From a virus (Duplodnaviria > Heunggongvirae > Uroviricota > Caudoviricetes), in the IMG/VR virus record IMGVR_UViG_3300021256_000075, positions 1-64,000 of that record: a stretch of DNA of 64,000 nucleotides. One strand, 5' to 3'. Positions 2,887 to 46,446 of this stretch are shown in pieces; position 1 is the first letter of the stretch, and each line of letters starts with the position of its first letter. The notes under the pieces were generated by a model. It saw only the letters and a program-made list of their open reading frames with translations, was not told the origin of the DNA and made no database searches. The position numbers and the translations under genes are program-made.

Positions 2887-4110
2887 ATGGCTGAAATCAG
2901 CAAAATTCAACTTCCCAGCGGTAGTATTTATGACATTAAGGACTCGGTAGCCCGTGAGATGGCGGCCGGCACCATCCACCTTGTGGAAGGTACCTGCACA
3001 ACGCCTCTTGTGGACAAGGCGACCACAAACCCGATCATCATCGATGACGAATCCTATACGGCAAAAAAGGCCGATGCGGTCATCTACAACAACAAAGAGT
3101 TCGTCTTTGATGGGACGCAGTGGCACGAGTTTGGTGACCTGACGGGTCTCGGATCTCTCGCGTTCAAGAACAGCGCATCCGGATCCTTCACCCCTGAAGG
3201 CACGGTCAGCCAGCCGACCTTCACGGGCGAGGAAATGACCTCGACCGGCACTGTTGCCGCAACAGGCACGGTTTCCCAGCCGACATTCACGGGCGATGAG
3301 ATGACCAGCACCGGATCTGTCACGGCAGCCGGCACGGTCAGCCAGCCCACCTTCACCGGTGACGAGATGACCAGTACGGGTACTTTCCAGCCCACTGGTA
3401 CGGTCAGCCAGCCGACCTTTGAGGGTGCGCAGGGCAACGTCTCTGTCAGCGGTACTCCTGCCGGAAGCATCGGGGTTGGTACAGGAACGGCGAACTATAC
3501 GCCTGCCGGAACGGTGTCTGCACCGAACATCTCGGTTACGCCCACAAAGGACAACACCGGCTATATGGCCAGCAGTGCTACAGGCGGTGGCGTGGTGACG
3601 GCTGGTACGGCTGCGCAGGCAACGATGCCCGAACTCGCTATGTCGGTCGAAAACGAGACCCTGTCGCTGAACTGGACGGCGGGATCCTTCACGCCGAACA
3701 CGCCGACCGCTGTTACTCTGCCGACCTTTGCTGCGAAGGAGGTTGTCACTGACATTGAGTCTGCGACCGCATCTGTTCCGACCTTCACGGGAACTGGCGT
3801 GGATCTGGAGTTTACAGGCACTGCCATGAACTCTACCGGAAAGTTCACTCCGGAAGGCACGGTTTCTCAGCCCACCTTCAGCGGAAACACGGGCAATGTG
3901 TCCGTATCCGGAACGCCGGAAGGCACGGTTTCCCAGCCGACCTTCACCGGATCTGCTGCGGCTGTTTCCGTCACCGGCACTCCGGCTGGCACGGTTTCTC
4001 AGCCCACGTTCACCGGAACGGAAGCACCTGTTTCTGTCAAGGGAACTCCCACCGGCGATGTCAGCCAGCCCACCTTCACCGGTACTGCCGGAAACGTCAC
4101 CGTATCCTGA
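2887..4110 (+). CDS. tail fiber protein with about 8 tandem GTVSQPTF(T/S)G repeats
   Basis: RBS aaaggag before ATG 2887; about 60-nt tandem repeats at 3180-3420 and 3840-4100 in protein and DNA. Confidence 0.5.
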   Translation: MAEISKIQLPSGSIYDIKDSVAREMAAGTIHLVEGTCTTPLVDKATTNPIIIDDESYTAKKADAVIYNNKEFVFDGTQWHEFGDLTGLGSLAFKNSASGSFTPEGTVSQPTFTGEEMTSTGTVAATGTVSQPTFTGDEMTSTGSVTAAGTVSQPTFTGDEMTSTGTFQPTGTVSQPTFEGAQGNVSVSGTPAGSIGVGTGTANYTPAGTVSAPNISVTPTKDNTGYMASSATGGGVVTAGTAAQATMPELAMSVENETLSLNWTAGSFTPNTPTAVTLPTFAAKEVVTDIESATASVPTFTGTGVDLEFTGTAMNSTGKFTPEGTVSQPTFSGNTGNVSVSGTPEGTVSQPTFTGSAAAVSVTGTPAGTVSQPTFTGTEAPVSVKGTPTGDVSQPTFTGTAGNVTVS

Positions 4111-6064: not shown

Positions 6065-6895
6065 GTGGTAACCATCGCCACGATTAGCCTGGATAAATTT
6101 CTTGAATGCCTGAAAGAGAATGCGGCACGCATTAAAGACTATGATTACGGACATGACGGAAGTGATGGTACTAGCGACTGCGTGGGCTATGTTATCGGTG
6201 CGCTGAGGCTCGCCGGTATCAACTATAAGGGGACACACGGGAGCAATTATTTTGAGAGAAAGTGCACGATTGACGTCCATCGTGTAACAAACGCAGATCA
6301 GCTGGAGCTTGGGGAGGTTGTCTACAAGGCGTATGAGCCAGGTGAATCCGGGTGGGATCTTCCCAGCAGTTACTTCAGAGATCCTGATCAGAACGATTAT
6401 TATCACATCGGCGTTGTGACGAGTGTGAATCCGCCGGTCATCTCGCATTGTTCAACCGGCGGCATGCACTATGACAACAGTCTTGGAAAATGGAAGTACG
6501 CCGGATGGTGTATATATGTACAGGGAGGGAAAATCTTGAAACCGCCATATATTGCCAGTGTAATCACCCAGAAGGGATCTCTCAACATCCGCTCGGGCCC
6601 CGGAACGGAGTATCCGAAGATCGGGAGCGTTCCGAAAGGTGCATCTGTCACGGTCAAGACACACCGGGAAGAGTGGGATTTTATCGAGTATGCCAATACC
6701 CAGGGGTATGTAAGCAATCAGTACCTGCAGCCGATAAAAGAAATTCCGGATGATCCGACACCTACGCCGGAACCGGATCCGGAAGATCCGACAATGATTA
6801 TTCTGAAGATCCCGGCTGAAACAGCACGGATGTGGGCAGAGGTACTCAGCCAAATTGTGGCTGTACTAAACGAGGGAAAAACCAATGGAGACTAG
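6065..6895 (+). CDS. endolysin: NlpC/P60-like cysteine peptidase domain plus C-terminal SH3b domain
   Basis: Catalytic-Cys context SDCVGYV; C-terminal GSLNIRSGPGTEYPKIGSVPKGASVTV SH3b pattern; homolog of CDS 44265-45077; start uncertain (GTG 6065 or upstream TTG 5984). Confidence 0.55.
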   Translation: MVTIATISLDKFLECLKENAARIKDYDYGHDGSDGTSDCVGYVIGALRLAGINYKGTHGSNYFERKCTIDVHRVTNADQLELGEVVYKAYEPGESGWDLPSSYFRDPDQNDYYHIGVVTSVNPPVISHCSTGGMHYDNSLGKWKYAGWCIYVQGGKILKPPYIASVITQKGSLNIRSGPGTEYPKIGSVPKGASVTVKTHREEWDFIEYANTQGYVSNQYLQPIKEIPDDPTPTPEPDPEDPTMIILKIPAETARMWAEVLSQIVAVLNEGKTNGD

Positions 6896-7145
6896 TGTTA
6901 TGGCAGCTGTCATCAGCGTTGTCGGATCGATCATCGTGGCAATGATATCCTTCTACGCCAACCGAAAGGGTGCGAAAGAAGCATCGGAAACCAATGCCAA
7001 ACTGATTGCTTACAGGATACAGGAACTCGAAAAAAAGCAGGATAAACATAACAGCATGATTGAAAGAACCTTCAATCTGGAAGGAAAAATGACCGAAGTG
7101 GAGCACGATATACGCGACATCAAAAGGAGGATGGAACTGTCATGA
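6885..7145 (+). CDS. lysis-cassette membrane protein (N-terminal TM helix plus coiled coil; XhlA-like/holin accessory)
   Basis: Homolog of 45074-45325; between lysin and holin in both cassettes. Confidence 0.45.
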   Translation: METSVMAAVISVVGSIIVAMISFYANRKGAKEASETNAKLIAYRIQELEKKQDKHNSMIERTFNLEGKMTEVEHDIRDIKRRMELS

Positions 7146-7420
7146 TAAACTGGGACGTACGGTGGAAAAACAAAACCTTCTGGATTACGATAATTCCAGC
7201 GATTATTCTGCTGGTGCAGGCTGTAGCTGGGCTTTTCGGCTTTGAACTGGAGCTCTCTGAGCTGCAGGAAAAGCTCCTGGTGGTTGTTAACGCCGTCTTT
7301 GGAGTCCTCGTGATTCTGGGTGTTGTGGTGGATCCGACTACGCACGGCGTAAACGACAGCGTACGGGCGCTTGGATACAAAGAACCCTGGAAAGATGACG
7401 ATGTTCAGGATGCAAAGTAA
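7142..7420 (+). CDS. holin, phi LC3 family
   Basis: Two TM helices and C-terminal VVDPTTHGVNDS motif characteristic of the phi LC3 holin family; ATGA overlap with upstream gene. Confidence 0.65.
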   Translation: MINWDVRWKNKTFWITIIPAIILLVQAVAGLFGFELELSELQEKLLVVVNAVFGVLVILGVVVDPTTHGVNDSVRALGYKEPWKDDDVQDAK

Positions 7421-7474
7421 GATTGACCTTTTCTGCACCTGACAGAAAACTATATGCAGACAGGAGTTGTGAAA

Positions 7475-7750
7475 ATGGAAGAGAAAGAGATCCAGATTTC
7501 GTACATCGTTCATGAGTCAGAAGTAGCCAGGCTGGAACGGGTCATCCGAAGGCTGTGGATTCTCTGCATCATCATATTCGTTGCATTGATCGCAACAAAC
7601 GCAGCCTGGATCTGGTACGAGTCCAGGTACATTGATGAAGTTGTGACCGAAACATACACGGCCGATACAGATGGAGGCGGGACGGCAATCGCAAACGGAG
7701 AAGGAAGTGTTGTGATCAATGGCGACAGCAACGAGAACAAAAGTAACTAA
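7475..7750 (+). CDS. cassette protein 1: small single-TM protein
   Basis: RBS aggag 7 nt before ATG 7475; homolog of 52555-52830 (HESEVARLER...LWILCIIIF...VVTETYTA). Confidence 0.45.
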   Translation: MEEKEIQISYIVHESEVARLERVIRRLWILCIIIFVALIATNAAWIWYESRYIDEVVTETYTADTDGGGTAIANGEGSVVINGDSNENKSN

Positions 7751-7936
7751 GACCAGAATCCTGAAGGGCGGTAAAAATACAAGAAAGTGCAATATATGCC
7801 ATGGTAGAGGTTATATTGTCACGAAGAAGTAGATGAAAAAATATCGCCACAAGGACAGCGGGTTGCAAACCGTTTCTTACATTCCTATGCATGTAAGATT
7901 ACTTGTGGCGATTTTGTAAGCATAGGAGAAATAATT

Positions 7937-8800
7937 ATGGGAACAAAGAATTCTCACAAATACAAAGATATTGATTTGACAGGGAAAAGACACGAAAGAT
8001 TAACGGTCATATCAAAATCAAAGAATGGAAGAAGCAGGTATATTTGCAAATGTGACTGTGGTAACGTAATAGAATTGCCTGCTCATAGATTTTTTGATTA
8101 TAAGTCATGTGGATGTCTCGAAAAAGAAAACAAAACACAGCTCACCAAATACACACGAACTCACGGAATGACGGAGACGAAACTGTACAAAACATGGTGT
8201 GGGATAAAGGCAAGGTGTAACAATCCAAACACACCTCACTATGAGCGATATGGCGGAAGAGGAATTTCAGTATGTGACGAATGGATGAATTCATTTGAAG
8301 ATTTCAGAGACTGGGCATTTTCTGCCGGGTATCAGGAAAACGATTCATGCAAAAAACTTAGTATAGACAGAATCAATCCGAACGGGAACTACGAGCCTTC
8401 GAATTGCAGGTGGATAACAACAAAAGAGCAGTCACGCAATAGAGAAAACTCACGTTATATTTCCGTAAATAACGAAATGATACCATTGGAACAATTTGCA
8501 GAAGAAGAAAAAATACCTGGTTATTTTATCAGACGTAGACTTGAAAAAGGTCAATCATCAGACGAAATAATCCATGACTGGAAAATGTTGCACGAAACCC
8601 CGCAGGGTTACATGGACATTCGGGATGCAATGAAATATTACAATGTATGTTATGTAACAATTTTAAAGTGGATAAAATCAGGTTTGCTTAAAGCCGAAAG
8701 ATACGGCCAGAAATGGTACATACCAAATGGCCAATCGGTGAAAAACGAGAGTGAAGGAAGAGACACATATGGGAGATTCATCAAAGGACATAATCACTAA
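7937..8800 (+). CDS. AP2/HNH-related DNA-binding protein with C-terminal HTH (homing-endonuclease-like insertion)
   Basis: Motifs GKRHERLTVI...CKCDCG, YERYGGRGISVCDEW, IDRINPNGNYEPSNCRWIT; absent from the second cassette copy; AT-rich. Confidence 0.45.
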   Translation: MGTKNSHKYKDIDLTGKRHERLTVISKSKNGRSRYICKCDCGNVIELPAHRFFDYKSCGCLEKENKTQLTKYTRTHGMTETKLYKTWCGIKARCNNPNTPHYERYGGRGISVCDEWMNSFEDFRDWAFSAGYQENDSCKKLSIDRINPNGNYEPSNCRWITTKEQSRNRENSRYISVNNEMIPLEQFAEEEKIPGYFIRRRLEKGQSSDEIIHDWKMLHETPQGYMDIRDAMKYYNVCYVTILKWIKSGLLKAERYGQKWYIPNGQSVKNESEGRDTYGRFIKGHNH

Positions 8801-8824
8801 AATATTTGCAAGGCGGATCAGAAA

Positions 8825-9040
8825 GTGAAACCGGAAGAGCTGAACCTTTCTGTCGCAGATCTGTCTTCGCTGATTGACCAGTGGATCTTCAGTTCAAGAG
8901 ATCGGGCAATCCTGAAGAGGAGATACTGTGACGGAATCACCTATGCGAGGATCGCAGAGGAGTTCGACATGAGCGACAGGCAGATCGTACGGATCTGCTA
9001 TAAACAGTTTGAAAGAGTTATTCAGCACGCAGAAAAGTGA
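8825..9040 (+). CDS. cassette protein 2: sigma-70 region-4-only protein (putative transcription regulator)
   Basis: RDRAILKRRYCDGITYARIAEEFDMSDRQIVRI matches sigma-70 region 4.2 HTH; GTG start; homolog 52903-53118. Confidence 0.45.
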   Translation: MKPEELNLSVADLSSLIDQWIFSSRDRAILKRRYCDGITYARIAEEFDMSDRQIVRICYKQFERVIQHAEK

Positions 9041-9046
9041 ATGACA

Positions 9047-9095
9047 AAGAGGTCTTGCAGGATGCGAAAAGTCCTGTGAGACCTCTTTTTTTCGT
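9047..9095 (+). terminator. rho-independent terminator
   Basis: agaggtct...agacctct stem followed by T7. Confidence 0.5.
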
Positions 9096-9119
9096 TCTGC
9101 AATTTTTTTTAAAAACCTA

Positions 9120-9148
9120 TTGACACAATACGTTAATAGGGTTATAAT
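9120..9148 (+). promoter_or_regulatory. strong sigma-70 promoter (moron)
   Basis: TTGACA-17-TATAAT; near-identical copy at 9702-9730 with a similar leader. Confidence 0.55.
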
Positions 9149-9196
9149 GTGCACATAAGGTCAAGCGAACGAAACGACACACAGGAGGGCGCAAAA

Positions 9197-9427
9197 ATGA
9201 AGATGTATCAGATCGTAGAACAGGGCAGAGGACTCAACGAGTCCTATATGCTCGGCTTTGACAGCGATGCCGAACTTGGCAGATATCTCCACGGCAAGGA
9301 GGCAATGTCTGAGATAAAGAACTACTCCATCGTAGCCTGGAGCGTCCGCGATGACGGCGCCGGCTATGTGGATGTTGAAAGGTACTGGAGATGGAATGCA
9401 ATCCACAAAGCCATGGGGATTGCATGA
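9197..9427 (+). CDS. hypothetical moron protein (76 aa)
   Basis: RBS acaggaggg; own promoter and downstream terminator-less spacer. Confidence 0.4.
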   Translation: MKMYQIVEQGRGLNESYMLGFDSDAELGRYLHGKEAMSEIKNYSIVAWSVRDDGAGYVDVERYWRWNAIHKAMGIA

Positions 9428-9496
9428 CCCGTCTGAATCAGACAGGCCGAGCCTGAGCGGCTAATCTCCGGCAGAAAGAAGGAGAACGTGGATACA

Positions 9497-9661
9497 ATGA
9501 AAAAATGGTACGCAACAGTAACGCGGGAGGACGGCACCCAGTTCGAGATTGGCGGATATTCTGAAAAAGAAATCCAGAAGGATTTGAGAGACATCCACAG
9601 GACAGGTTTTGCTGATCTGGACAAGGCAAGCGTGGAAGTGTACAGCATCAGCATATTCTAA
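9497..9661 (+). CDS. hypothetical small protein (54 aa)
   Basis: RBS aaggagaacg; ATG 9497; not in ORF track (<60 aa). Confidence 0.3.
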   Translation: MKKWYATVTREDGTQFEIGGYSEKEIQKDLRDIHRTGFADLDKASVEVYSISIF

Positions 9662-9701
9662 TCCGGCCAAAAAGAAATTTCAGAAATTTTAAAATTCCAT
9701 G

Positions 9702-9730
9702 TTGACATAATACGCCAACAGGGTTATAAT
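9702..9730 (+). promoter_or_regulatory. strong sigma-70 promoter (moron)
   Basis: TTGACA-17-TATAAT, paralog of 9120-9148. Confidence 0.55.
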
Positions 9731-9779
9731 ACAACCATCGAACGACAAACCAACCTAACCACGACAGGAGGCACAAACC

Positions 9780-10211
9780 ATGAAGAACATCAATCTCTCC
9801 GCCGTTTACGGCATGGACGTTACCCACGAGCAGCTGACCACTGCTGGATTCCGGAAGGTGGATGAACGCGGCGGCTCATACGTCACGGTCACGTACTACA
9901 ATCCGGAAACGGATGAGGGTGGCAGCCTCCTGGCTCGTGACTATGAGTACAGCAACTGCTCCCGTGACAATGACTCCATCTATAACGCCAGTATAGATGA
10001 GAGAGTCCGCAGGAACTGGATGCACCAAAACGGCTGCATCTTTGTCGGAGACACCGTGGTTGTGGTCAAGGGCCGGAAGGTTCCGAAAGGAACATTCCAC
10101 ACGGTCATCCGGATCAAGGAGATCCATGACCGCTTCGGCCGGTGGCAGGCTGACTACCTCATCTTCGATGATGGTCTGGCAACGAACATCACGAACTGCG
10201 TTCTTGCCTGA
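9780..10211 (+). CDS. hypothetical moron protein (143 aa)
   Basis: RBS acaggagg; followed by terminator 10212-10250. Confidence 0.45.
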   Translation: MKNINLSAVYGMDVTHEQLTTAGFRKVDERGGSYVTVTYYNPETDEGGSLLARDYEYSNCSRDNDSIYNASIDERVRRNWMHQNGCIFVGDTVVVVKGRKVPKGTFHTVIRIKEIHDRFGRWQADYLIFDDGLATNITNCVLA

Positions 10212-10250
10212 TACAGTGAAAAGCTCCCCTGAAGGGGGGCTTTTTTTTTA
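10212..10250 (+). terminator. rho-independent terminator
   Basis: gctcccctgaaggggggc hairpin plus T9. Confidence 0.5.
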
Positions 10251-10356
10251 TGTCCTTAAAACCGCACAGGAGCCCGGAAAAAGTGTCTCCCGGATGTCAT
10301 AAAAGCTTCTTCCTGGTGACATTTTGATGGACTGCCTCCAAAACTATACTTTCCCC

Positions 10357-10587
10357 ATGAGTACGACAGATATTGATGACATCATGGCTGCCCTGCGCAA
10401 CCAGGGAGTGTCACGTGAATTTTGCGAACAGATCCGCAGGAATGCGGATGCCGGTGCACTGGATTATGCACTGAATCTGATACGGGGAGAAGAAGATGGG
10501 TGTTTGGCTGGACGTAAATGTCAATCCGCTCGGGAGGAGAGTGGGAGACTGCGCTGTCAGAGCCATTGCCGTAGCCCTCGATACTGA
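10357..10587 (+). CDS. cassette protein 3: small helical protein (end uncertain, overlaps next gene)
   Basis: DIDDIMAALRNQGVSREFCEQIRRNADAGALDYALNLI is homologous to the 54-aa ORF 53232-53396. Confidence 0.25.
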   Translation: MSTTDIDDIMAALRNQGVSREFCEQIRRNADAGALDYALNLIRGEEDGCLAGRKCQSAREESGRLRCQSHCRSPRY

Positions 10588-10876
10588 CTGGGAAACGGCG
10601 TACTGCCTCCTGGCATCCTGCGGCTATGACACAAAAAACATCATGAATGCCGATGCGGTAATCGGCAAAACGCTCCGGGATCATGGCTTCAAGCGTGCGG
10701 TAATCCCGAACAGCTGTCCGGACTGCTACTCCGCAGAGGAATTCTGCGAGGACCACCCGACCGGCACGTACGTGCTTTTCTTCGGCGGGCATGTAGCTTG
10801 TGTGAAGGATGGGAAGCTGTACGACACCTGGAACAGCAGTTATGAAATCCCGCAGTACTACTGGGAAAAGGAGTGA
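10496..10876 (+). CDS. cassette protein 4: papain-fold Cys-His-Asp enzyme (C39-like peptidase or transglutaminase-like)
   Basis: Ordered motifs GDCAVRAIAVAL (Cys), GGHVACV (His), DTWNSS (Asp/Asn); homolog 53368-53754. Confidence 0.45.
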   Translation: MGVWLDVNVNPLGRRVGDCAVRAIAVALDTDWETAYCLLASCGYDTKNIMNADAVIGKTLRDHGFKRAVIPNSCPDCYSAEEFCEDHPTGTYVLFFGGHVACVKDGKLYDTWNSSYEIPQYYWEKE

Positions 10877-10881
10877 AGTGA

Positions 10882-11349
10882 ATGGCCCTGTTTAACAATG
10901 GATTTCCGACAAGCTACCCCCAGATGTATCCGCAGCAGTATCCGCAGACCTACCAGCAGATGCAGGGAATTCAGCAGCCACAGAGTCCCGTGCAGAACTC
11001 CGGGCTGATCTGGATTCAGGGTCTTCAGGCAGCGAAATCCTTCCTGATAGCACCGAATACTACGGTTCCGCTTTTTGACTCGGAGGCACAGTGCATCTAC
11101 CTGAAATCATCCGATGCCAGCGGAATGCCCTCGCTGAAAATCCTCGATTACACGATACGCGATCAGACGCAGGGAAACGGCGTTTTAAGCACTCCCGGAA
11201 AAACGGAAGAGAATCCACCCAAGTACGTCACAAAAGCCGAATATGAGGCACTCCAGGCCGAATTTGATGACCTTAAAGCAAAGTTCGAAAGTTTCACGTC
11301 TAAGCGACCGATTAAGCCGATGAAAAAGGAGGAGCTTGCAAATGAATGA
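10882..11349 (+). CDS. cassette protein 5: Q/P/Y-rich N-terminus protein
   Basis: YPQMYPQQYPQTYQQMQGIQQPQSP then conserved IWIQGLQAAKSFLIAPNTTVPLFDSEAQCIYLKS; homolog 53757-54221. Confidence 0.5.
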   Translation: MALFNNGFPTSYPQMYPQQYPQTYQQMQGIQQPQSPVQNSGLIWIQGLQAAKSFLIAPNTTVPLFDSEAQCIYLKSSDASGMPSLKILDYTIRDQTQGNGVLSTPGKTEENPPKYVTKAEYEALQAEFDDLKAKFESFTSKRPIKPMKKEELANE

Positions 11350-11545
11350 ACTGTACAAGCAGATCCAGCCGAATCAGAACCCGACAGAAGGATTCATTCA
11401 GCGGTTTCAGCAGTTCCGTCAGGGCATAAAAGGAGATCCGAAGGAACAGATTCAGGCTCTCATGAATTCTGGGAGGGTCTCCCAGGCACAGTACAACAAC
11501 GCCTACCAGATGGCCAGCCAGCTCATAAGGATGTTCGGCAAATAA
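11336..11545 (+). CDS. cassette protein 6: small Q-rich helical protein (69 aa)
   Basis: Homolog 54211-54426 (QRFQQFRQ...AQYNNAYQMA). Confidence 0.4.
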   Translation: MQMNELYKQIQPNQNPTEGFIQRFQQFRQGIKGDPKEQIQALMNSGRVSQAQYNNAYQMASQLIRMFGK

Positions 11546-11596
11546 AAAAGTCAGTCCGTAGACTGACTAATCTGCGACCGCATTTGCCGCAACCAC
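11543..11596 (-). ncRNA. antisense mini transcription unit 3 (about 50-nt RNA)
   Basis: Minus-strand promoter TTGATC-17-TATAAT (11603-11631), then hairpin gtcagtc/gactgac and T6. Confidence 0.35.
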
Positions 11597-11632
11597 ATAA
11601 CCATTATAGCGGATGTATGACTCCGGATCAAC

Positions 11633-11689
11633 AAAAAAAAGGCCAGCAAAGCTGACCTTTGGGGGAAATCCGTGACATTGCCGCGCAGC
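11633..11689 (-). ncRNA. antisense mini transcription unit 2 (about 55-nt RNA)
   Basis: Minus-strand promoter TTGACA-17-TAGAAT (11696-11724), then hairpin ggtcagc/gctggcc and T8. Confidence 0.35.
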
Positions 11690-11725
11690 AAAGACATTCT
11701 ACCAAAACAAAGGGTTCCTGTCAAC

Positions 11726-11787
11726 AAAAAACCACCCGGCGGGTACCGGGTGGAAAATGAAAGGAAATCCATGAAGCAGTACAGATC
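11726..11787 (-). ncRNA. antisense mini transcription unit 1 (about 60-nt RNA)
   Basis: Minus-strand promoter TTGACA-17-TATACT (plus coords 11794-11822), then hairpin ccacccgg/ccgggtgg and T7. Confidence 0.35.
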
Positions 11788-11882
11788 AAATTGAGTATAC
11801 ACATCAGACAGAAAAATGTCAAGCTTACAAATTCCGGCGCGCAGGAATTTTGTAATAAATCACAAGTAAAGGAGAAAACGAA

Positions 11883-12806
11883 ATGGCTCTTACTGATGAA
11901 GCAAACGGAATGGGAACGACTATGCTTGTGCAGCCTTCCAACTACAACGGGAACGGCGGAGACGGATTCTTCGGTGCCAATGGCATTTGGTTTCTGATCC
12001 TCTTCATCCTGCTTGGAGGCTGGGGGAACGGCTTCGGCGGAGGCTTTGGAAACGGCTACGGTGCCAATGCAATGGCCGATATGTACCCGTGGTTTAATCA
12101 GTCCAATCAGATCAACGGTGGTTTCCGCGACCAGATGATCAGCGGGAAGATCGATGCGATCAACAACAACCTTGTTTCCGGATTTGGTGACGTGCAGCTC
12201 GGAATTGCCGGCATCAACCAGAACATCTGTCAGACCGGCAACGGAATCGTGTCGGCGGTGACGGGTGCGCAGAATGCCCTGACATCCCAGATGTATGCCA
12301 ATCAGATCGCTGATATGGAACGGTCCTTCGCCGCCCAGACAGCTCAGACAGCCGGCATGACCGCTCTTCAGGCGCAGCTGGCGCAGTGCTGCTGCGACAA
12401 TCGCGCCGCAACGGCCGACCTGAAATACACGGTAGCAACCGAGAACTGTGCGGACCGGACTGCGGCTGCCCAGAACACCCGTGACATTATCGATGCGCAG
12501 ACCAGGGGAACCCAGGCAATTCTGGACAAACTGTGCGCTCTTGAGCTGGATGGCGTGAAGAACCAGCTGGCACAGGCACAGCGTGAGAATGTCGGGCTCC
12601 AGAATCAGCTGAACATGGCGAACCTTTCCGCTTCCCAGGCGGCTCAGACTGCGGCGTTCCAGCAGGGAATGAACAACGAGGTGGATGCCTTGTATAACCG
12701 TCTCAAAAATTGCCCGGTCCCCAGTCAGCCGGTATATGGCAATCAGCCGATTTTCACATGCGGCGGTAACAGCGGCTGCGGCTGCGGCTGCGGCGCGATG
12801 GCGTAA
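11883..12806 (+). CDS. cassette protein 7: Gly-rich membrane protein with Cys-rich C-terminus ending CGCGCG
   Basis: N-terminal GIWFLILFILLGGWGNGFGGGFGNGYG TM/Gly-rich; QCCCDN, C-terminal TCGGNSGCGCGCGAMA encoded by (GCTGCG)n; homolog 54488-55411. Confidence 0.55.
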   Translation: MALTDEANGMGTTMLVQPSNYNGNGGDGFFGANGIWFLILFILLGGWGNGFGGGFGNGYGANAMADMYPWFNQSNQINGGFRDQMISGKIDAINNNLVSGFGDVQLGIAGINQNICQTGNGIVSAVTGAQNALTSQMYANQIADMERSFAAQTAQTAGMTALQAQLAQCCCDNRAATADLKYTVATENCADRTAAAQNTRDIIDAQTRGTQAILDKLCALELDGVKNQLAQAQRENVGLQNQLNMANLSASQAAQTAAFQQGMNNEVDALYNRLKNCPVPSQPVYGNQPIFTCGGNSGCGCGCGAMA

Positions 12807-12818
12807 GAGGTGAGAGAC

Positions 12819-13274
12819 ATGGCAGAGTTTGTGCAGAACGAGATCCAGCTTGTACAGCCGAATCAGAACGTTTTACTACAGTCCTCCATTCCGTGCAACA
12901 GAGGGTATGTCTATCACCGGAATGGATCCGGAATCCTAACTCTCCGTGGCGTTGTAAACGGTGCGTGCGGATGCTTCGCACGCTATCAGGTCACCTTCAA
13001 TGGAAACATCGCCGTTCCGGAAGATGGAACAGTCGGACCGATTGCCATTGCGCTGGCACTGGATGGTGAACCCATTCAGACCAGCCGGGCAATCGTAACG
13101 CCTGCGGCAGTCGATGAGTACTTCAACGTCACATCCACGGCAATCATCACGATCCCGAGAGGATGCTGCGAGAACCTGTCCGTGGAAAATGTGTCGTTCG
13201 GCGCGACTGCAGCAGATGCACCGACAGCCATCAATGTCCAGAACGCCAACCTGACCGTATCGAGAATAGCCTGA
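12819..13274 (+). CDS. cassette protein 8: Cys-containing beta-rich protein (152 aa)
   Basis: NGACGCFARY...PRGCCENLS; homolog 55424-55888; ATG 12819 with RBS agaggtgagag. Confidence 0.5.
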   Translation: MAEFVQNEIQLVQPNQNVLLQSSIPCNRGYVYHRNGSGILTLRGVVNGACGCFARYQVTFNGNIAVPEDGTVGPIAIALALDGEPIQTSRAIVTPAAVDEYFNVTSTAIITIPRGCCENLSVENVSFGATAADAPTAINVQNANLTVSRIA

Positions 13275-13290
13275 GAAAGGAGAGAAGGAA

Positions 13291-13701
13291 ATGGATAAAG
13301 TCAAAGAACTCACAACGATGTGCGAGACGTTGTTTAAAGAGATCGCTGACATGAATAAGAAGATTGAGAACGCCAACGGCAAAATGTCTGCCGGTGACCT
13401 GGAAGCGATCCAGAAGCTGATGCATTCCGTGAAGTCTGCGAAAACCTCCCTGGCGATGATCGAAGCCGAGGAAGGATCCTCGAATGATGACGGCACTAAG
13501 TACAACAGCAACCGCAGCCGCCGGATGAGTTACGGGATGCCGTACTATGGGTATATGCCTTCCTACGGATACCGTCCGGAGATGGGATATTCCAGGCATG
13601 GAGATTTTGTGGATGATCTGCAGGAAGTCATGATGGATGCTCCCAACGACAATGTGCGCAGAGAGATCCAGAAGCTGATTGATAAGGTATCGATGATGTG
13701 A
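13291..13701 (+). CDS. cassette protein 9: N-terminal coiled coil plus Gly/Tyr-rich low-complexity region
   Basis: YGMPYYGYMPSYGYRPEMGY; homolog 55906-56355 with a longer G/Y/N tract. Confidence 0.5.
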   Translation: MDKVKELTTMCETLFKEIADMNKKIENANGKMSAGDLEAIQKLMHSVKSAKTSLAMIEAEEGSSNDDGTKYNSNRSRRMSYGMPYYGYMPSYGYRPEMGYSRHGDFVDDLQEVMMDAPNDNVRREIQKLIDKVSMM

Positions 13702-13707
13702 TGTTAA

Positions 13708-13745
13708 AGAGGGTTGCCTTGAGGGGCAATCCTCTTTTTTGCATA
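13708..13745 (+). terminator. rho-independent terminator ending cassette 1
   Basis: gagggttgcc/ggcaatcctc stem plus T6. Confidence 0.5.
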
Positions 13746-16137: not shown

Positions 16138-17109
16138 ATGTTGGAAATCATAAAAACGCACACCGGAAAAATCTACGTTGACAGAGAGAAAAAGCTGGAG
16201 TTTCTGACAGTAGGAGATTACGGCAAAGAGAACAATATCAAAGCGAATTTTCTTGGACTGACAAAGGAGATCCACGGTGTCCGGAATACGGATGTAGATC
16301 TGAAAAAGAAATGGGTCGCTACCATCAGCACCCAGCATGGTTGTCCGATGAAGTGCGCCTTCTGTGATTGCCCGAAATACGGATTCTACGGGAACGTGTC
16401 TCGTGAAGACCTTGCTTATCAGATCTCAACAATTTGCAGCAACGAGGATGCTCGTGAGACGGAGCGGTTCAACGTCCACTTTGCCCGCATGGGTGAGCCG
16501 ACATTCAACCTTCAGACATTACTGTTTGCGGAATTTGATCTGAGAGACTGCGTCAAAGAAGCGGGCGTAGATGCAAAGACGATTCACCCCGTTGTGTCCA
16601 CCATGCTTCCTGCGAATAACGTCAATCTTGAATCATTCCTGAAACAGTGGTGCTGGATTAAGAATGAGAGTTATCATGGAGAAGCAGGACTTCAGTTCTC
16701 GATCAATTCGACTGATGCAGATCAGCGCAAGAATCAGTTCAGGGACAGATCGCTAAGTCTGTTAAAGATTGCGGCTCTTGCCGAAAATCTTCCGATGCCT
16801 GTTGGAAGGAAATACACGTTAAACTTTGCGGTAACCCCTGACACGATCCTTGATCCGCATATGCTGGATGTCTTATTTGACAAGAACAAGTTTATCGTGA
16901 AGATCACGCCGATTCATCAGACGAAGGCTGCGGTTGAAAATCATTTCGATGTTGCTTCTACGTATCGTGATTATGACGTTTACAGGAGATTTGAGGATCC
17001 GCTCCTTGAAGCAGGATGGGACGTGATTGTCTTTGTTCCAAGTCTTGAAGAGGACAGCGATCGCATCACCTGTGGCAATGCATTGATATCAACGACAGAA
17101 TTGAGATAA
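16138..17109 (+). CDS. radical SAM enzyme, RlmN/Cfr-like family
   Basis: ISTQHGCPMKCAFCDC (CxxxCxxC), ARMGEPTFN and C-terminal ITCGNAL resemble the RlmN/Cfr Cys cluster, MGEP motif and second catalytic Cys. Confidence 0.5.
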   Translation: MLEIIKTHTGKIYVDREKKLEFLTVGDYGKENNIKANFLGLTKEIHGVRNTDVDLKKKWVATISTQHGCPMKCAFCDCPKYGFYGNVSREDLAYQISTICSNEDARETERFNVHFARMGEPTFNLQTLLFAEFDLRDCVKEAGVDAKTIHPVVSTMLPANNVNLESFLKQWCWIKNESYHGEAGLQFSINSTDADQRKNQFRDRSLSLLKIAALAENLPMPVGRKYTLNFAVTPDTILDPHMLDVLFDKNKFIVKITPIHQTKAAVENHFDVASTYRDYDVYRRFEDPLLEAGWDVIVFVPSLEEDSDRITCGNALISTTELR

Positions 17110-21398: not shown

Positions 21399-21584
21399 AT
21401 GATTATTAAAAAGGGAAAAATAATATATTTTATATGCTTATCCTGTGATTGCGAATTTACAGTAGGAATTCATTCTGTGAAAAGTAACGATGGAAATTAT
21501 TACTGCTCTTGTCCTATGTGCGGCATGGAATGCCATACAGATGTTGCGGAGCAAGGAGACAAAAAAGGAGGAAAACAACAATGA
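21399..21584 (+). CDS. small zinc-finger protein
   Basis: CLSCDCEF...CSCPMCGMEC. Confidence 0.3.
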   Translation: MIIKKGKIIYFICLSCDCEFTVGIHSVKSNDGNYYCSCPMCGMECHTDVAEQGDKKGGKQQ

Positions 21585-22444
21585 AAAAGGCTATTGGTAC
21601 AATCGTGGTTCTGATGATGATTTTTGCAACGGTTACGGTATCTGCCGCAACGATCATTGACGAAGGATTTGTGGGAATTGTTCTGCATCACGGACAGATG
21701 CAGGATGATCTTCTGTACCCCGGAAAACATCGGCTTGGATTCCTCGGAATCGGCTATGATGTAATCAAGATGGACTGCCGTTGGCAGAACTACAGCATTC
21801 AAACATCTGCTTTCTCCAAAGATATTCAGCAGGTTGATTTGATTGTTTCTGTTAATTATCAGCTTCAGAAACAGGGAGCACAGCGGATGTACAGGGACGT
21901 TGGCGAGGATTACGCGGACAAGATCATAAAGCCCAGAATGCTTGATGCTTTGAAGTCGGTTATATCGAAATACAGTGCGGAAGAACTGATTGCAAAGAGG
22001 CAGGAGATTTCATACCAAGTTCTTGATTTAATCAAAGCACAGTTGGAATTCTACGAGTTGAATATCCGTGAAATCGCTATTGAAGATATTGATTTCACTG
22101 ACGCATACACGGATGCCATTGAGGCAAAACAGGTTGCCACACAGCGTTCATTGCAAATCAAGACCGAGCAGGAGCAGTTAACGCTTGAAACCGAAGCGGA
22201 AGCAGAGCGTAAAAAGATCGAAGCGCAGAATGCTTTGGAGATCGCGAAACTGGAAGCGGATGCAATTGTGTACACTGCTGAAAAACAAGCGGAAGCAAAC
22301 AAGAAACTCGCGGAAAGTATGACGAATGAGCTTCTTGACTATTACCGAATTGAGAAGTGGGATGGAAAGCTCCCGAAGATTTCTGGCGGTGAGTCTATGA
22401 TTACTCTAGTTGATGGAACAAAGGAAACTGAGGAACAGCAGTAA
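21581..22444 (+). CDS. SPFH/band-7 (prohibitin-like) membrane protein
   Basis: N-terminal TM then SPFH-type core and long E/A/K-rich coiled coil. Confidence 0.55.
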   Translation: MKKAIGTIVVLMMIFATVTVSAATIIDEGFVGIVLHHGQMQDDLLYPGKHRLGFLGIGYDVIKMDCRWQNYSIQTSAFSKDIQQVDLIVSVNYQLQKQGAQRMYRDVGEDYADKIIKPRMLDALKSVISKYSAEELIAKRQEISYQVLDLIKAQLEFYELNIREIAIEDIDFTDAYTDAIEAKQVATQRSLQIKTEQEQLTLETEAEAERKKIEAQNALEIAKLEADAIVYTAEKQAEANKKLAESMTNELLDYYRIEKWDGKLPKISGGESMITLVDGTKETEEQQ

Positions 22445-23442: not shown

Positions 23443-23696
23443 GCAAATTAGTAAAAGCGAATCGTCAATGCAAAACTTGCTTTGCAAACCATAACCGAAA
23501 AGGATGCAGAGCTTTGGCGTGGCCGGACTATGAGGACGGGCAATGTCCATTCTTCAAAACGCGGGAACAGCATATAAAAGATGTTCAGTACTGGGAGAAT
23601 CTGGCAAAGGCAAGAGGCAAAATGACTGCGAATGGCATTTATTACAAACGAGCAAGAATGCAGGAGAACAAAGAGATACTGGAGGATGCAGAATGA
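23439..23696 (+). CDS. Cys-containing small protein
   Basis: CKTCFANHNRKGC...CPFF. Confidence 0.35.
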   Translation: MSKLVKANRQCKTCFANHNRKGCRALAWPDYEDGQCPFFKTREQHIKDVQYWENLAKARGKMTANGIYYKRARMQENKEILEDAE

Positions 23697-24349
23697 AAAT
23701 TGAGGAACAGCGGTACAGGATTCTTACACCAGAGTATTTTCTCATTTACGGAAACTTGACTATTATCGAAGAAGCGGCAAGGACTTGCTACAAATCGGAA
23801 GGAAAAACGGTAGCAGATGCAGAGCACTCTTCCGCACAAAGGTTAATTCGAAGCTGTATCAAACGTGGGCATGAATCAGTTCTGGAGCATTCCATCTTGT
23901 CTGTGCGCTTTGTCACGAATAGGGCTATTGCACAGCAGTTAACGAGGCACAGACTTTGCGCATTCTCAATGGAAAGCCAGAGGTATTGCAATTACACGCA
24001 GGACAGGTTTTCAAACGAGATATCCTTTATCAAGCCGCTTTGGTGGTATGGTGCAAGCGATACGCAAAGAATAGCGTGGGCAGAAGCATGCGAACATGCT
24101 GAGTACGATTACAACAATTGCATCAAGGACGGCATGAGGCCGGAAGAAGCGCGTGAATTCCTGCCGAACTGCACCAAGACGGAATTGGTCATGTCTGCGA
24201 ACTTGCGCGAATGGCGACACATTCTGAAGCTCAGAACGGCAAAGGAAGCTGACCCGATGATTCGGAACTTATGCACACCCTTGCTCAAGGAGCTTGCGGA
24301 GAAACTGCCTTGCATCTTTGAGGATATCGCTGTACAGCTCAAAAACTGA
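23693..24349 (+). CDS. thyX: flavin-dependent thymidylate synthase ThyX
   Basis: ThyX signature RHRLCAFSMESQRY (RHRx7-8S) plus conserved H/E context; ATG 23693 after RBS ggagga. Confidence 0.65.
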   Translation: MKIEEQRYRILTPEYFLIYGNLTIIEEAARTCYKSEGKTVADAEHSSAQRLIRSCIKRGHESVLEHSILSVRFVTNRAIAQQLTRHRLCAFSMESQRYCNYTQDRFSNEISFIKPLWWYGASDTQRIAWAEACEHAEYDYNNCIKDGMRPEEAREFLPNCTKTELVMSANLREWRHILKLRTAKEADPMIRNLCTPLLKELAEKLPCIFEDIAVQLKN

Positions 24350-24436
24350 AAAAAGTTGCAAAAACATTCAAAAGTCGGCGGTATTTGGCGGTTCACGGTT
24401 GTTTATGTTGGTTAAATATGTGCTATAATACTATCG

Positions 24437-24545
24437 TCAACAGAGTATGGGTGTTGCACACATGAAGAGTTTCTTCCTCTAACAAACTTTTCTATTTCCC
24501 GAAAAGGCTCACGAGTTATGGTCATCTCGTGGGCCTTTTACTTTT
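24437..24545 (+). ncRNA. small transcription unit (about 105 nt) upstream of the tRNA
   Basis: Extended -10 TGCTATAAT at 24421-24429; strong terminator ggctcacgag...ctcgtgggcc plus T-run at 24506-24545. Confidence 0.3.
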
Positions 24546-24592
24546 ATTTACAATTGGCACAAAGCGAACAATTCGCACCACTTTAAAAAAAC

Positions 24593-24667
24593 AGTGGATT
24601 AGCCAAGAGGTAAGGCATGGGACTTTGAATCCTGTATCCGTAGGTTCGAATCCTACATCCACCGCCA
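24593..24667 (+). tRNA. tRNA-Gln (anticodon UUG), CCA encoded
   Basis: Manual cloverleaf: acceptor agtggat/atccacc with A1:C72 mismatch, U8, D-arm with A14/GG, anticodon loop CUUUGAA, T-arm gtagg-TTCGAAT-cctac, G73, CCA. Confidence 0.5.
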
Positions 24668-24689
24668 TAACACTAGCAAGGAGCGATGA

Positions 24690-25154
24690 ATGGACGAATT
24701 AAAACTCGTTTATATTCCTGTTGATGAGCTTACACCGTATGAGAGGAATGCAAGGAAACATACTGAGCATGACATTGAAGCGATCAAGGAAAGCATTAAA
24801 CAGTCTGGAGGTTTCAACGACCCTATTGGAATCTGGGGAAAGAATAATTTAATCGTTGAAGGGCATGGCAGACTTATCGCCGCAAAAGAGCTAGGAATGC
24901 AGGAAGTGCCGTGTATCCGCCTTGACCATATGACAGACGAGGAACGGAAGAAATATGCCTTACTGCATAACCAAACAGCATTGCTCTCTGAATGGGACAG
25001 TTTAAAGCTTGCGGAAGAACTGAACGGCTTGGATTTTCAAGGCTTTGATTTTGAATTCTATACACCTTCCGAAAATATTGTGGGGGGGGTACTGATGATA
25101 ATGCAAGATATACCGGAGAAACCAAAATACCTCAGTACGAGCCTTATCGGATGA
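24690..25154 (+). CDS. ParB-like nuclease domain protein
   Basis: ParB N-terminal nuclease motifs (YERNARKH, GHGRLIAAKELG); G8 tract at 25082-25089 is in frame (VGGV). Confidence 0.55.
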   Translation: MDELKLVYIPVDELTPYERNARKHTEHDIEAIKESIKQSGGFNDPIGIWGKNNLIVEGHGRLIAAKELGMQEVPCIRLDHMTDEERKKYALLHNQTALLSEWDSLKLAEELNGLDFQGFDFEFYTPSENIVGGVLMIMQDIPEKPKYLSTSLIG

Positions 25155-44268: not shown

Positions 44269-45077
44269 GGATGATGAATAAAATTCCGATTAACGACATT
44301 TTCGGATGGTGCAAAACAATGCTCGAGGATGAATGGGGCTACATCCTAGGCACTGCCGGAATACTGTGGACGCAGAGCAGGCAGGATGCCACCGAAAACG
44401 AGATGGCAAAGAAATACGGAAGCAAATGGATTGGGCATACTGTTGCCGACTGTTCCGGCGTGATGGTTTATATTTGGAAACAATACGGATTATCCATTTA
44501 TCATGGCTCAAATACCATCGCCAGAAAGTACTGCGGAGAAATGACGAAAGTGCCTCATAAAGGTTTTGCCGCGTTCAAATGGCGCAAGTACGGTGGCCCG
44601 TATTCTGATGGCAAAGGAGACTTTTATCACATCGGAATTGTTGATGAAAAGGAAGAATATGTGTACGAGTCCCGAAGCACACAGGCAGGATTTAAACACG
44701 ATTCTCCTGTGTCTAAATGGGACTTTTTCGCGCCGTTCACTGATTTTAATTACGGGGAGGTAGCGCCGTTGGAAACGTGGTACAGGGCATACGTGAATAC
44801 GGAAAAGGGCAGTTTGAATTTGCGTGTTGCTCCGGGAACAAACAGCAGAATAATTACAACGCTTGAAAAAGGCACGGTGGTAGATGTTTACAGCGTTGAC
44901 GGAGACTGGTCACAGGTTTCTCCCGATGGCGGAGCTATTGTAGGTTGGTGCTCTAGCAAATACCTCACAAAGATCAAAACAAGCGCACGATATGGGGTTT
45001 TCATTCCTTGCGAGAGTGAGGAAGAAGCTATAAAGGTATCCCAACTTTTTAAAAATGCAGAGGTGAGGGAATTATGA
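44265..45077 (+). CDS. endolysin: NlpC/P60-like peptidase plus SH3b
   Basis: ADCSGVMVY catalytic Cys context; C-terminal SH3b (GSLNLRVAPGTNSRIITTLEKGTVV). Confidence 0.65.
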   Translation: MRMMNKIPINDIFGWCKTMLEDEWGYILGTAGILWTQSRQDATENEMAKKYGSKWIGHTVADCSGVMVYIWKQYGLSIYHGSNTIARKYCGEMTKVPHKGFAAFKWRKYGGPYSDGKGDFYHIGIVDEKEEYVYESRSTQAGFKHDSPVSKWDFFAPFTDFNYGEVAPLETWYRAYVNTEKGSLNLRVAPGTNSRIITTLEKGTVVDVYSVDGDWSQVSPDGGAIVGWCSSKYLTKIKTSARYGVFIPCESEEEAIKVSQLFKNAEVREL

Positions 45078-45325
45078 ACACCGAAATTGTAACGGCACTG
45101 ATAAGCATTGCCGGAAGCATCATTGTGGCTATTATCAGTTACAACGCCAACAAAAAGGGTGCGGAAGAGGCTTCAAAGGCAAATGCCGCATTGATCGCGT
45201 ATCGTCTGGAACAGCTCGAAAAGAAGCAGGATAAACACAATGATTTAATTATGAGGACATTTAAACTTGAAGGTAGAATGCAGGAAGCAGAACATGATAT
45301 TCGCGATATCAAAGAGAGGTTGTGA
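45074..45325 (+). CDS. lysis-cassette membrane coiled-coil protein (XhlA-like)
   Basis: Homolog of 6885-7145. Confidence 0.45.
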   Translation: MNTEIVTALISIAGSIIVAIISYNANKKGAEEASKANAALIAYRLEQLEKKQDKHNDLIMRTFKLEGRMQEAEHDIRDIKERL

Positions 45326-45639: not shown

Positions 45640-46446
45640 ATGATAAAAATTGAGTACAACATCCGGCAAGCGCATGTCATTGCAAACGAAATTGTAACGA
45701 ATAAATCCGTTGGCATCGAAGCGCAATTTCAGTTTTCTTCTGACTGGGACGGGCTTTCCAAAATTGTTGAGTTCAAAGGCTCTGGAAACACTGTGGACGT
45801 TGCGTTGCTTGAAGGCAATGAATGTGTTATTCCGCATGAAGTGCTTACCGAGTACGGCGGTGAATTGAAGATCGGTGCATATGGCGTGAACACTGCCGGA
45901 GATGTTGTAATTCCTACTGTTTGGGCAGTGATCGGAATCATCCGGCAAGGCACAATCCCGGAAAGCGAGACTGAGCCAGTACCTACGCAGTCCGTGATTG
46001 ATCAAATCTTAACAACTGCCGGAAACGCGTACACAATGGCATCGGATGCACTCACAAAAGTTGATACTGTTGTAGATGAATCGCTTGAAGCTATTTCAGA
46101 AGCGAAAAATGACGCGCTGAACGCTATTTCTGACGCGACTGAGGATTTATATCAAGCGCGTGATGAAGCTGTTCAAGCGGCAGAAACAGCGGTAAATGCC
46201 AAGACTGATACAGAGGATGCTCTTGCAGATGCAACGGAGCTTATTCAGACGGAAACGGCTGAATCTGCAAAGAATGCTGACAAGGCTGAGACTTATTACT
46301 ATCTCTCAAGGATGCAAGCCGCTACAGGTGGTTTCCTACATCTTGTAAATAAAAACGGACGAATTTACTGCATCCGAACTGGCAATTGTGGTTTGGACAT
46401 GAAGATGGAGAACGGGAGGTTATTCTATGGCTACACCGAGCAGTGA
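45640..46446 (+). CDS. tail/baseplate protein (BppU-like N-domain plus coiled coil)
   Basis: N-terminal pattern similar to 927-1955. Confidence 0.4.
   Translation: MIKIEYNIRQAHVIANEIVTNKSVGIEAQFQFSSDWDGLSKIVEFKGSGNTVDVALLEGNECVIPHEVLTEYGGELKIGAYGVNTAGDVVIPTVWAVIGIIRQGTIPESETEPVPTQSVIDQILTTAGNAYTMASDALTKVDTVVDESLEAISEAKNDALNAISDATEDLYQARDEAVQAAETAVNAKTDTEDALADATELIQTETAESAKNADKAETYYYLSRMQAATGGFLHLVNKNGRIYCIRTGNCGLDMKMENGRLFYGYTEQ

Follow-up and report, generated by a model that had tools for sequence, protein, structure and literature searches.

A co-linear gene module with an apparently dedicated regulatory layout in phages of gut and rumen Clostridia

Alt of phage TP901-1, Mor and the sigma-70 region-4 proteins are small helix-turn-helix (HTH) late activators, and the layout described at the TP901-1 late promoter consists of phased direct repeats upstream of a poor promoter. 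In Firmicute prophages, moron or lysogenic-conversion cassettes with a promoter and terminator of their own are found between the lysis genes and attP-int. Both systems are compared here with a gene module that occurs twice, in diverged form, in positions 1 to 64,000 of the IMG/VR virus record IMGVR_UViG_3300021256_000075. This whole stretch of 64,000 nucleotides, referred to as the window, is part of a 149-kb metagenome scaffold (ERZ28612970 scaffold_165, 149,135 bp). An initial annotation, made from the sequence alone, had described a nine-gene cassette of low-complexity proteins that was not recognised as a known phage module. The module genes are named A to J in order, with suffix 1 for copy 1 and suffix 2 for copy 2. 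The analysis points with high probability to a phage module that is conserved and has a regulatory layout of its own.

Two copies of the module and its distribution

Nine homologous gene pairs, A to I, are arranged in identical order on the + strand, at 7475-13701 (copy 1) and 52555-56355 (copy 2). The distance between the copies is 45.1 kb, and the + strand carries every gene called in the window. The BLASTP identity between the two copies is 79% for A, 62% for B, 41% for C, 52% for D, 62% for E, 63% for F, 81% for G, 51% for H and 46% for I. The alignment of C1 with C2 covers just 46 amino acids (aa), and C is the weakest pair and the least conserved member. At the DNA level the identity is 68-75% and patchy. 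Nei-Gojobori estimates for each of the nine pairs gave pN values of 0.11-0.42 and pS values of 0.70-1.0, indicating saturated synonymous sites and purifying selection. Because the synonymous sites are saturated, the split between the copies is old and a recent duplication is ruled out. Thus the co-linear, protein-level homologous set proposed initially is indeed present twice, as nine + strand pairs of 41-81% identity, and its duplication was correctly taken as not recent (pS 0.70-1.0).

Features of copy 2 (+ strand throughout).
52496-52524: sigma-70-type promoter-like site before A2-B2, TTGATT-17-TGnTATAAT (10/12 matches, extended -10)
52555-52830: A2, 91-aa bitopic membrane protein with basic N-side and acidic C-terminal tail (KD19 2.29; no family match)
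52903-53118: B2, 71-aa HTH protein of the sigma-70 r4 / Alt-like class (Pfam, PHROGs), proposed activator of C-J
53131-53148: intrinsic terminator-like hairpin and T-run ending the A-B unit
53160-53184: three TGTC words, 10-11 bp apart, proposed B binding array; sole array on the copy 2 side, none elsewhere except before C1
53195-53225: promoter-like element CATTTTGACG-N15-TATAAT, 15-nt spacer sub-optimal; recurs only at 10320-10350
53232-53396: C2, 54-aa helical protein
53368-53754: D2, 128-aa putative papain-like thiol enzyme, invariant D18-C19, H99 and D111 plus CPxC (phrog_3754)
53757-54221: E2, Q/P/Y-rich N-terminus, conserved core of ~50 aa, C-terminal helix (phrog_21718)
54211-54426: F2, 71-aa Gln-rich protein (phrog_22984)
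54488-55411: G2, 307 aa, Gly-rich hydrophobic N-terminal segment, long helices, ten conserved Cys, GCGCGCG tail (phrog_16490)
55424-55888: H2, 154-aa TNF/C1q-like jelly-roll protein (modelled), conserved Cys27, Cys53 and Cys117-118
55906-56355: I2, helix, disordered middle rich in G/Y/S/R/N, helix
56371-56715: J2, 114-aa conserved protein

Module features of copy 1 (+ strand throughout).
7475-7750: A1, immediately 3' of the holin gene (7142-7420)
8825-9040: B1
9046-9088: terminator-like hairpin 3' of B1
10218-10245: terminator-like hairpin ahead of the C1-I1 operon
10320-10350: promoter-like element CATTTTGATG-N15-TATACT
10351-10587: C1, uncertain gene, 92-nt overlap with D1
10496-10876: D1
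10882-11349: E1
11342-11545: F1
11883-12806: G1
12810-13274: H1
13291-13701: I1
13721-13736: terminator-like hairpin at the end of copy 1

Independent gene calls revised the starts of A1 (7475), F1 (11342), E2 (53757) and I2 (55906) and did not include C1, which is why that gene is listed as uncertain. The initial extent of copy 1 as a nine-gene cassette, 7454-13745, holds for the nine genes; four inserted genes also lie inside it. The 114-aa gene J had been regarded as an addition to copy 2. It is a frequent module member, present in 58 of ~110 loci, which copy 1 lacks.

The co-linear cassette was sought in other phage and Clostridia genomes, and ~110 loci were found: 27 contigs of metagenome-assembled genomes (MAGs) from GTDB, the best 80 of 337 G relatives in IMG/VR, and named phages. 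The order A-B-(C)-D-E-F-G-H-I-J is invariant across these phage loci, and the complete set is the commonest pattern. Since the genes are co-linear in ~110 loci, their co-occurrence is conserved well beyond the window, contrary to what the initial annotation had named as a refutation of its proposal. The named phages with the module are Ceridwen (cultured; host Butyrivibrio fibrisolvens DSM 3071), Dulem virus 33 and bajarodcaudo virus 5. The 27 MAG loci come from Clostridia of mammalian gut and rumen, namely Lachnospiraceae, Ruminococcus, Acutalibacteraceae, Oscillospiraceae and Solobacterium. The G family has more than 8000 clusters at 90% identity, none of them named and none with a Pfam domain, and the H family has 7997 clusters at 90% and 632 at 50% identity.

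The median gaps between genes are -10 nt for D-E, -22 for E-F, 13 for G-H, 16 for H-I and 6 for I-J, as in a translationally packed operon. E, F, G, H and J co-occur exclusively with one another in the phage database. D is also found as a solitary gene, in early/anti-restriction regions of Tsamsa-like Bacillus phages, in Geobacillus phage GBK2 and in Lak megaphages, and bajarodcaudo virus 5 carries the module without D. A, B, D and J are each absent from some loci. H1 is 83% identical to H of Ceridwen (24411-24863), and H2 is ~52% identical to either. By this comparison H exists as at least two allelic types, swapped independently of the adjoining G, the copies of which are 81% identical. The two copies stem from two different tailed phages of gut/rumen Clostridia, both Ceridwen-like, and the module is widespread, vertically conserved and recombining.

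Proposed regulation by B and properties of the proteins

A and B form a short unit with a strong terminator at its end in both copies. A2-B2 has its own sigma-70 promoter (52496-52524), and A1 directly follows the holin gene. B is a 71-aa protein consisting of an HTH only. It scores above the Pfam cut-offs for HTH_Tnp_4 and HTH_23, below the cut-off for Sigma70_r4 (21.7 vs 24.1) and below that of the sigma70-ECF superfamily (29 vs 42.9). Its best PHROG matches are weak, to the late activator phrog_836 (E = 1.2e-4) and the Alt-like phrog_2198 (E = 4.3e-4). Thus, of the initial description of B as a sigma-70 region-4-only protein, the HTH part stands; B falls short of the Sigma70_r4 cut-off and outside the sigma-70 factors.

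Between the terminator and C, TGTC words spaced 10-11 bp apart are seen in both copies, and such an array occurs nowhere else in the window. The conserved element CATTTTGAYG-N15-TATAMT is likewise present in the window only before C1 and C2. When the spacer between B and D was compared in 40 non-redundant loci, the autocorrelation of 5-mers had a peak at lag 11 (65 observed vs 6.2 expected, z = 18), with harmonics at 21-22 and 31-33. The repeat word varies by lineage together with the recognition helix of B, in the combinations MSDRQ/TGTCC, LSVRQ/TGCAC and xVxQVKRI/TGATAC. These patterns suggest for B the role of a private activator acting on the C-J operon, which would be turned on after transcription of the lysis genes. 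The proposal that the cassette has its own regulator is strengthened by the phased repeats upstream of C-J.

All ten proteins were searched against Pfam, NCBIfam and PADLOC, and nothing significant was obtained except the HTH domain of B. Among the PADLOC defence models there was no match below E = 0.005, the one at that value being a coiled-coil match. No significant match came from a PDB sequence-profile search with D, E, G, H, I and J. In PHROGs, D, E, F, G and H fall into five families, all of unknown function. The set is thus not a known annotated module, as was first proposed. An Rfam scan gave no match within the cassette.

Compositions were benchmarked against the proteome of the window itself. 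E contains 11% Gln and 7-9% Pro, F 19-24% Gln, G 13% Gly, 11% Asn and 3.6% Cys with the C-terminus GCGCGCG(A/G)(M/V)A, and I2 12% Gly and 7% Tyr. The assignments of E as Q/P-rich, F as Q-rich, G as Gly-rich and I as G/Y-rich are upheld against this background. A and G have one hydrophobic segment each, and no N-terminal hydrophobic or signal-like segment is found in D, E, F, H, I or J. The segment of A is a clear membrane segment, and its basic N-side is probably cytoplasmic, because of the positive-inside rule.

In 23 sequences of D, C19, H99 and D111 are invariant and D114 is near-invariant. The Asp-Cys pair (D18-C19) lies at the start of a predicted helix, and a CPxC motif is present. Homologues of D in Bacillus phages are sometimes labelled 'putative peptidase', and D itself has no Pfam or PDB-profile match to a peptidase family. 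Of the papain-fold enzyme suggested for D, the conserved Cys-His-Asp order is therefore retained and the match to a peptidase profile is missing. Kinship of D with the Peptidase_C39_2 endolysin in a nearby slot of bajarodcaudo virus 5 was considered and rejected (hhalign probability 1%).

The model of H has moderate confidence (pLDDT 79, pTM 0.74) and predicts a TNF/C1q jelly roll filling all 154 aa. Its best structural matches are the exosporium proteins BclA and ExsFA, at 10-15% identity in the structural alignment. Its matches in BFVD are stand-alone proteins of ~135 aa from uncultured phages and collagen-tailed giant-virus proteins. H and 22 family members had no Pfam, NCBIfam or PDB-profile match. 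Domain fusions of H were sought with an H profile in 1.84 billion representative proteins, and in the 150 best of 632 representatives only the stand-alone, unfused form of ~150 aa was present. The AF2 model of G (pLDDT 45) was unfit for a fold search. It has a hydrophobic, predicted membrane helix at 36-44 and long helices at 81-99, 120-173 and 178-276. Ten Cys of G are invariant or near-invariant, including CCC 169-171, C189 and the GCGCG tail, and a conserved Gly-Gly stands ahead of its hydrophobic segment.

Genomic setting and inserted elements

Copy 1 is preceded by genes for a tail fibre, an SH3-domain endolysin, a DUF7365 coiled-coil protein and a holin, and the endolysin/DUF7365/holin trio is found again 7 kb upstream of copy 2. 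Besides the cassette, the phages of the window have only lysis proteins in common (holin 71%, DUF7365 66%, endolysin 28%). When the lysis proteins and the cassette were set aside, the flanking phage regions had no shared protein at E <= 1e-4; they therefore represent different phages with one common mosaic block. A tandem duplication inside one genome was rejected, since the flanking phages share lysis genes only. The DUF7365 gene, at 6885-7145 and 45074-45325, lies between the endolysin and holin genes in both places (66% identity) and is a neighbour of the module in bajarodcaudo virus 5. Its product may be a lysis accessory travelling with the cassette.

The two cassettes had been placed at inter-phage junctions. 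In the complete circular genome of Ceridwen, the module is located after the endolysin and ahead of the early genes; in that of Dulem virus 33 it lies between endolysin and integrase, and in that of bajarodcaudo virus 5 holin, endolysin, DUF7365 and one small gene come first, followed by E-F-G-H. On the scaffold, integrase, ImmA-like peptidase and repressor (minus strand) genes, followed by Cro-like and replication genes, are met ~10.7 kb past cassette 2. The module is not a junction element, because it is internal, after the lysis genes, in complete circular genomes. An endolysin is found 1-2 kb upstream of the module in many loci. Downstream, in 70 loci with enough flank, a switch to the minus strand is seen in 33, with an integrase homologue there in ~17, and plus-strand genes follow in 37. 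The cassette is thus the terminal accessory region of each phage genome, with lysis genes upstream. A reading of D-J as the start of the early region, after the D homologues in early/anti-restriction regions of Tsamsa-like and GBK2 phages, was rejected for the whole module, since in temperate relatives the module is found to the late side of the integrase.

At least two to three different phage genomes are arranged head to tail on one strand of the scaffold. No lysogeny module is present between cassette 1 and the next packaging genes, and the sole integrase seen on the scaffold is the one beyond cassette 2, outside the window. Several module-bearing IMG/VR contigs are also long (94-148 kb). 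The arrangement could represent true tandem prophages or a chimeric assembly.

Copy 1 differs from copy 2 by the following inserts.
7937-8800, + strand: HNH homing endonuclease insert, outside the module (phrog_374, E = 8e-62; HTH_17 tail)
9120-10211, + strand: inserted moron-like genes 9149-9427, 9488-9661 and 9780-10211, none in copy 2
11546-11882, - strand: 337-bp insert between F1 and G1, copy 1 only, with three tandem promoter-like and terminator-like units

Homologues of the HNH endonuclease are found in 15 of ~110 loci, at many different intergenic positions of the module and in either orientation, and Dulem virus 33 carries a minus-strand endonuclease in the same F-G gap as the 337-bp insert. 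Insertion of HNH homologues at many module positions suggests the module as a preferred homing target among co-infecting phages. Two of the three moron-like genes stand behind promoters with 12/12 matches, TTGACA-17-TATAAT (9120-9148 and 9702-9730), and the block terminates at 10218-10245. Judged by these predicted signals, the block 9120-10211 has classic moron architecture. Each unit of the 337-bp insert has a sigma-70 promoter (10-11/12 matches) followed ~40 nt on by a GC-rich hairpin and T-run; the predicted transcripts of ~60 nt would fold into two hairpins (z = -3.3, -1.1 and -4.8). The insert had no Rfam or tRNA match and no similar sequence among ~115 related loci. Its units could be antisense small RNA genes opposing the operon.

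Other features of the surroundings were as follows. A 7-kb block (45640-52500) lies between the holin gene and cassette 2, and copy 1 has no such block. Among its products are one of 1005 aa (46427-49444; phrog_7158), with a calcineurin-like phosphoesterase domain, and one of 268 aa (phrog_19695). A pair of 90-bp repeats is found at 50004-50093 and 50282-50371 (83% identity). The tail-fibre-region gene 3178-4088 has internal direct repeats of 67-76% identity. Auxiliary genes ahead of the packaging genes encode a radical-SAM-like protein (16138-17109; phrog_24834), an SPFH/Band 7 protein (21509-22444), ThyX thymidylate synthase (23543-24349) and tRNA-Gln(TTG) (24593-24667). Between cassette 2 and the integrase, just past the 3' end of the window (L114 8050-14617), are genes for a DarA_C-domain protein, an SNF2 helicase, a PAPS-reductase/DUF3440 protein and a ParB_N protein. 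Judged by its domains, this stretch of the same accessory arm resembles a block for anti-restriction or DNA modification.

Possible functions and comparison with known systems

The module represents a conserved, regulated, multi-gene phage function. It is among the more widespread phage 'dark matter' of mammalian gut and rumen Clostridia, with thousands of clusters, strict order and purifying selection. Its exosporium-like fold, extreme compositions and apparent private activator argue for a discrete regulated process rather than random hypothetical genes. The reading favoured here, which is tentative as a whole, is that of a very late operon, activated by B, for building a membrane-associated, Cys-rich protein assembly. 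In copy 1, A-B would be transcribed off the end of the late/lysis operon, and in copy 2 from their own sigma-70 promoter, halting at the terminator. B would then bind the direct repeats, phased at 10-11 bp, past the terminator and activate the weak promoter TTGAYG-15 nt-TATAMT. The packed operon C-D-E-F-G-H-I-(J) would thereby be transcribed, and its products would appear last in the infection cycle.

The mechanism of assembly is the more doubtful part of this reading. The products, which have no signal peptides, would gather at the cytoplasmic membrane on G. This protein would provide a Gly-rich hydrophobic anchor, a Cys-rich tail and ~150 residues of long helix, which probably form an oligomeric coiled coil. 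H would contribute a TNF-fold trimer similar to BclA/ExsFA, and a low-complexity matrix would be made of the Gln-rich proteins E and F and of I, rich in Gly/Tyr. D is a putative thiol enzyme of papain type, and its role may be to process or cross-link a partner.

Several observations weigh against such an assembly under the control of B. The arrays in the window are short, with three TGTC words in copy 2 and 2-3 in copy 1. A and B are absent from some loci, e.g. Dulem virus 33; the operon is therefore drivable by some other means. Not one of C-J has a homologue of known function. The monomer model of G is poor; with a KD of 1.7-1.9 and without flanking charges, the hydrophobic segment of G is a borderline candidate for a membrane helix. 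A single function for all genes is presumed from synteny alone, and D is possibly functionally independent of E-I, because it is solitary in unrelated phages and missing from bajarodcaudo virus 5. As the favoured function is built on architecture and synteny, it is put forward with restraint.

An unlikely alternative is that G, H and their partners are late parts of the particle, an accessory virion structure such as a fibre or decoration, with the TNF-fold trimer H as its head and its genes lying apart from the main structural block. The TNF/C1q fold is also that of many phage fibre heads, is common in phage receptor-binding heads, and occurs in eukaryotic TNF and C1q. Against this reading, the lysis cassette separates the operon from the structural genes, and the operon has its own terminator and promoter. 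H lacks a stalk fusion in the 150 best of 632 representative clusters, and G has a membrane-type hydrophobic segment. In their visible tail regions, phages 1 and 2 have no protein in common at E <= 1e-4, whereas the module is 50-80% identical; because the tail regions share nothing while the module is conserved, no common docking partner on the tail is visible.

A more far-reaching form of the membrane-assembly reading is rather improbable. Phages of gut Clostridia would have an activator-controlled programme at the end of infection that builds a spore-coat- or exosporium-like layer from G, the H trimer and an E/F/I matrix, with cross-linking or processing by D as a possibility, and this layer could coat the infected cell, debris or released particles. 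If true, it would be a phage-encoded assembly of a kind not described so far, and phage TNF-fold proteins might then be linked in evolution to exosporium proteins.

It is improbable that the module acts at the envelope in lysis or exclusion. G would act like an i-spanin, a fusion-type or a superinfection-exclusion protein together with A and DUF7365, and the soluble partners would arrive after the holin opens the membrane. Lysis genes and module are the only proteins common to the window phages, bajarodcaudo virus 5 has E-F-G-H one small gene after holin, endolysin and DUF7365, and expression would be very late. The architecture of G is similar to that of Rz-type i-spanins and class I fusion proteins. 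The monoderm Clostridia hosts have no outer membrane to fuse, though, and the module offers no lipoprotein partner, only A and G having an N-terminal hydrophobic segment. Eight low-complexity-rich genes far exceed the needs of known spanins or exclusion systems, and PADLOC was blank.

Conversion of the spore surface is hardly probable. It would require a prophage-borne coat- or exosporium-like set to be laid on the host spore, with an ExsFA/BclA-like trimer, Cys-, Gln- and Gly-Tyr-rich proteins, a transglutaminase-like enzyme and a GerE-like HTH regulator. Exosporium proteins are indeed the best structural matches of H, and the slot between lysis genes and integrase is where Firmicute prophages carry conversion genes. 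Many hosts belong to Clostridia lineages that include spore formers, and we take the Gln-, Gly/Tyr- and Cys-rich compositions to parallel those of the coat proteins GerQ, CotC/CotU and ExsY/CotY. Against this, no member has a sequence-level match to a coat or exosporium family, and the sole cultured host, B. fibrisolvens, is not known to form spores. The module also occurs in MAGs assigned to Ruminococcus and Solobacterium, the integrase is not adjacent in about half of the loci, and the operon promoter appears sigma-A-like plus activator, not sigma-E/K-like. Ceridwen, observed in the lytic cycle only, carries the module intact (PMC7372960), and coat and exosporium genes go unmentioned in a survey of the sporulation genes of gut phages (PMC10294663).

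It is very improbable that independent morons travel together by chance: D is solitary in unrelated phages, C is poorly conserved, A, B, D and J are each lost from some loci and foreign genes insert freely, but E-I keep strict order with overlapping or near-abutting frames in ~110 loci despite saturated synonymous divergence, and the phage database has no E, F, G, H or J apart from the others.

Ceridwen on B. fibrisolvens DSM 3071 is a cultured, sequenced pair with the whole module. Because both are in culture, the function of the module is directly addressable. The lineage-specific pairs of B and repeat would supply orthogonal phage transcription switches for Clostridia.

Literature searches on phage-encoded exosporium or coat genes returned no description of the module. 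With no annotated family and no description in the literature searched, the initial proposal of an undescribed system stands. Its resemblance to spore coat or exosporium material is retained in the modelled fold of H: a TNF/C1q-like jelly roll is shared with the Bacillus exosporium proteins BclA (C-terminal domain), F-BclA and ExsFA/BxpB. It is not retained at the level of sequence, H being only 10-15% identical to BclA/ExsFA, with no Pfam or NCBIfam family match and hence outside these families. The collagen-like GXX repeats and the exosporium-targeting N-terminus of BclA are missing from H, and H differs from exosporium proteins in being phage-encoded, Ceridwen included. The exosporium analogy is thus a lead backed by one fold match to a predicted structure.

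D has the order Asp-Cys, His, Asp (D18-C19, H99, D111/D114) of papain-like peptidases (clan CA, C39-like or NlpC-P60-like); it differs from them by the lack of a significant Pfam or PDB match and by the extra CPxC motif. G shares with Rz-type i-spanins and class I fusion proteins a hydrophobic, Gly-rich segment at the N-terminus, two long helices with a short break, Cys near the break (CCC 169-171, C189) and lysis-gene neighbours. The likeness is one of architecture only, as G is twice as long as i-spanins, has no o-spanin partner and no sequence similarity to them, and belongs to phages of hosts without an outer membrane. Lachnospiraceae, Ruminococcus and Oscillospiraceae are monoderm.

B resembles the Alt, Mor and sigma-70 region-4 late activators in its small HTH and in the phased direct repeats upstream of a poor promoter; its PHROG matches to late activators are weak. 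Unlike the Alt-type activators, B is a protein of 71 aa below the Sigma70_r4 cut-off, is encoded after the lysis genes, and has an array that precedes this operon alone and not the packaging/head genes. With the moron and lysogenic-conversion cassettes the module shares its slot from the lysis genes to attP-int, its own promoter and terminator, and its exchange between otherwise unrelated phages. It has no toxin, enzyme or defence signature. It is much larger than such cassettes and much better conserved, with 8-10 genes in strict order in thousands of phages, and is kept also where no integrase is adjacent (37 of 70 loci) and in Ceridwen, a phage seen only as lytic.

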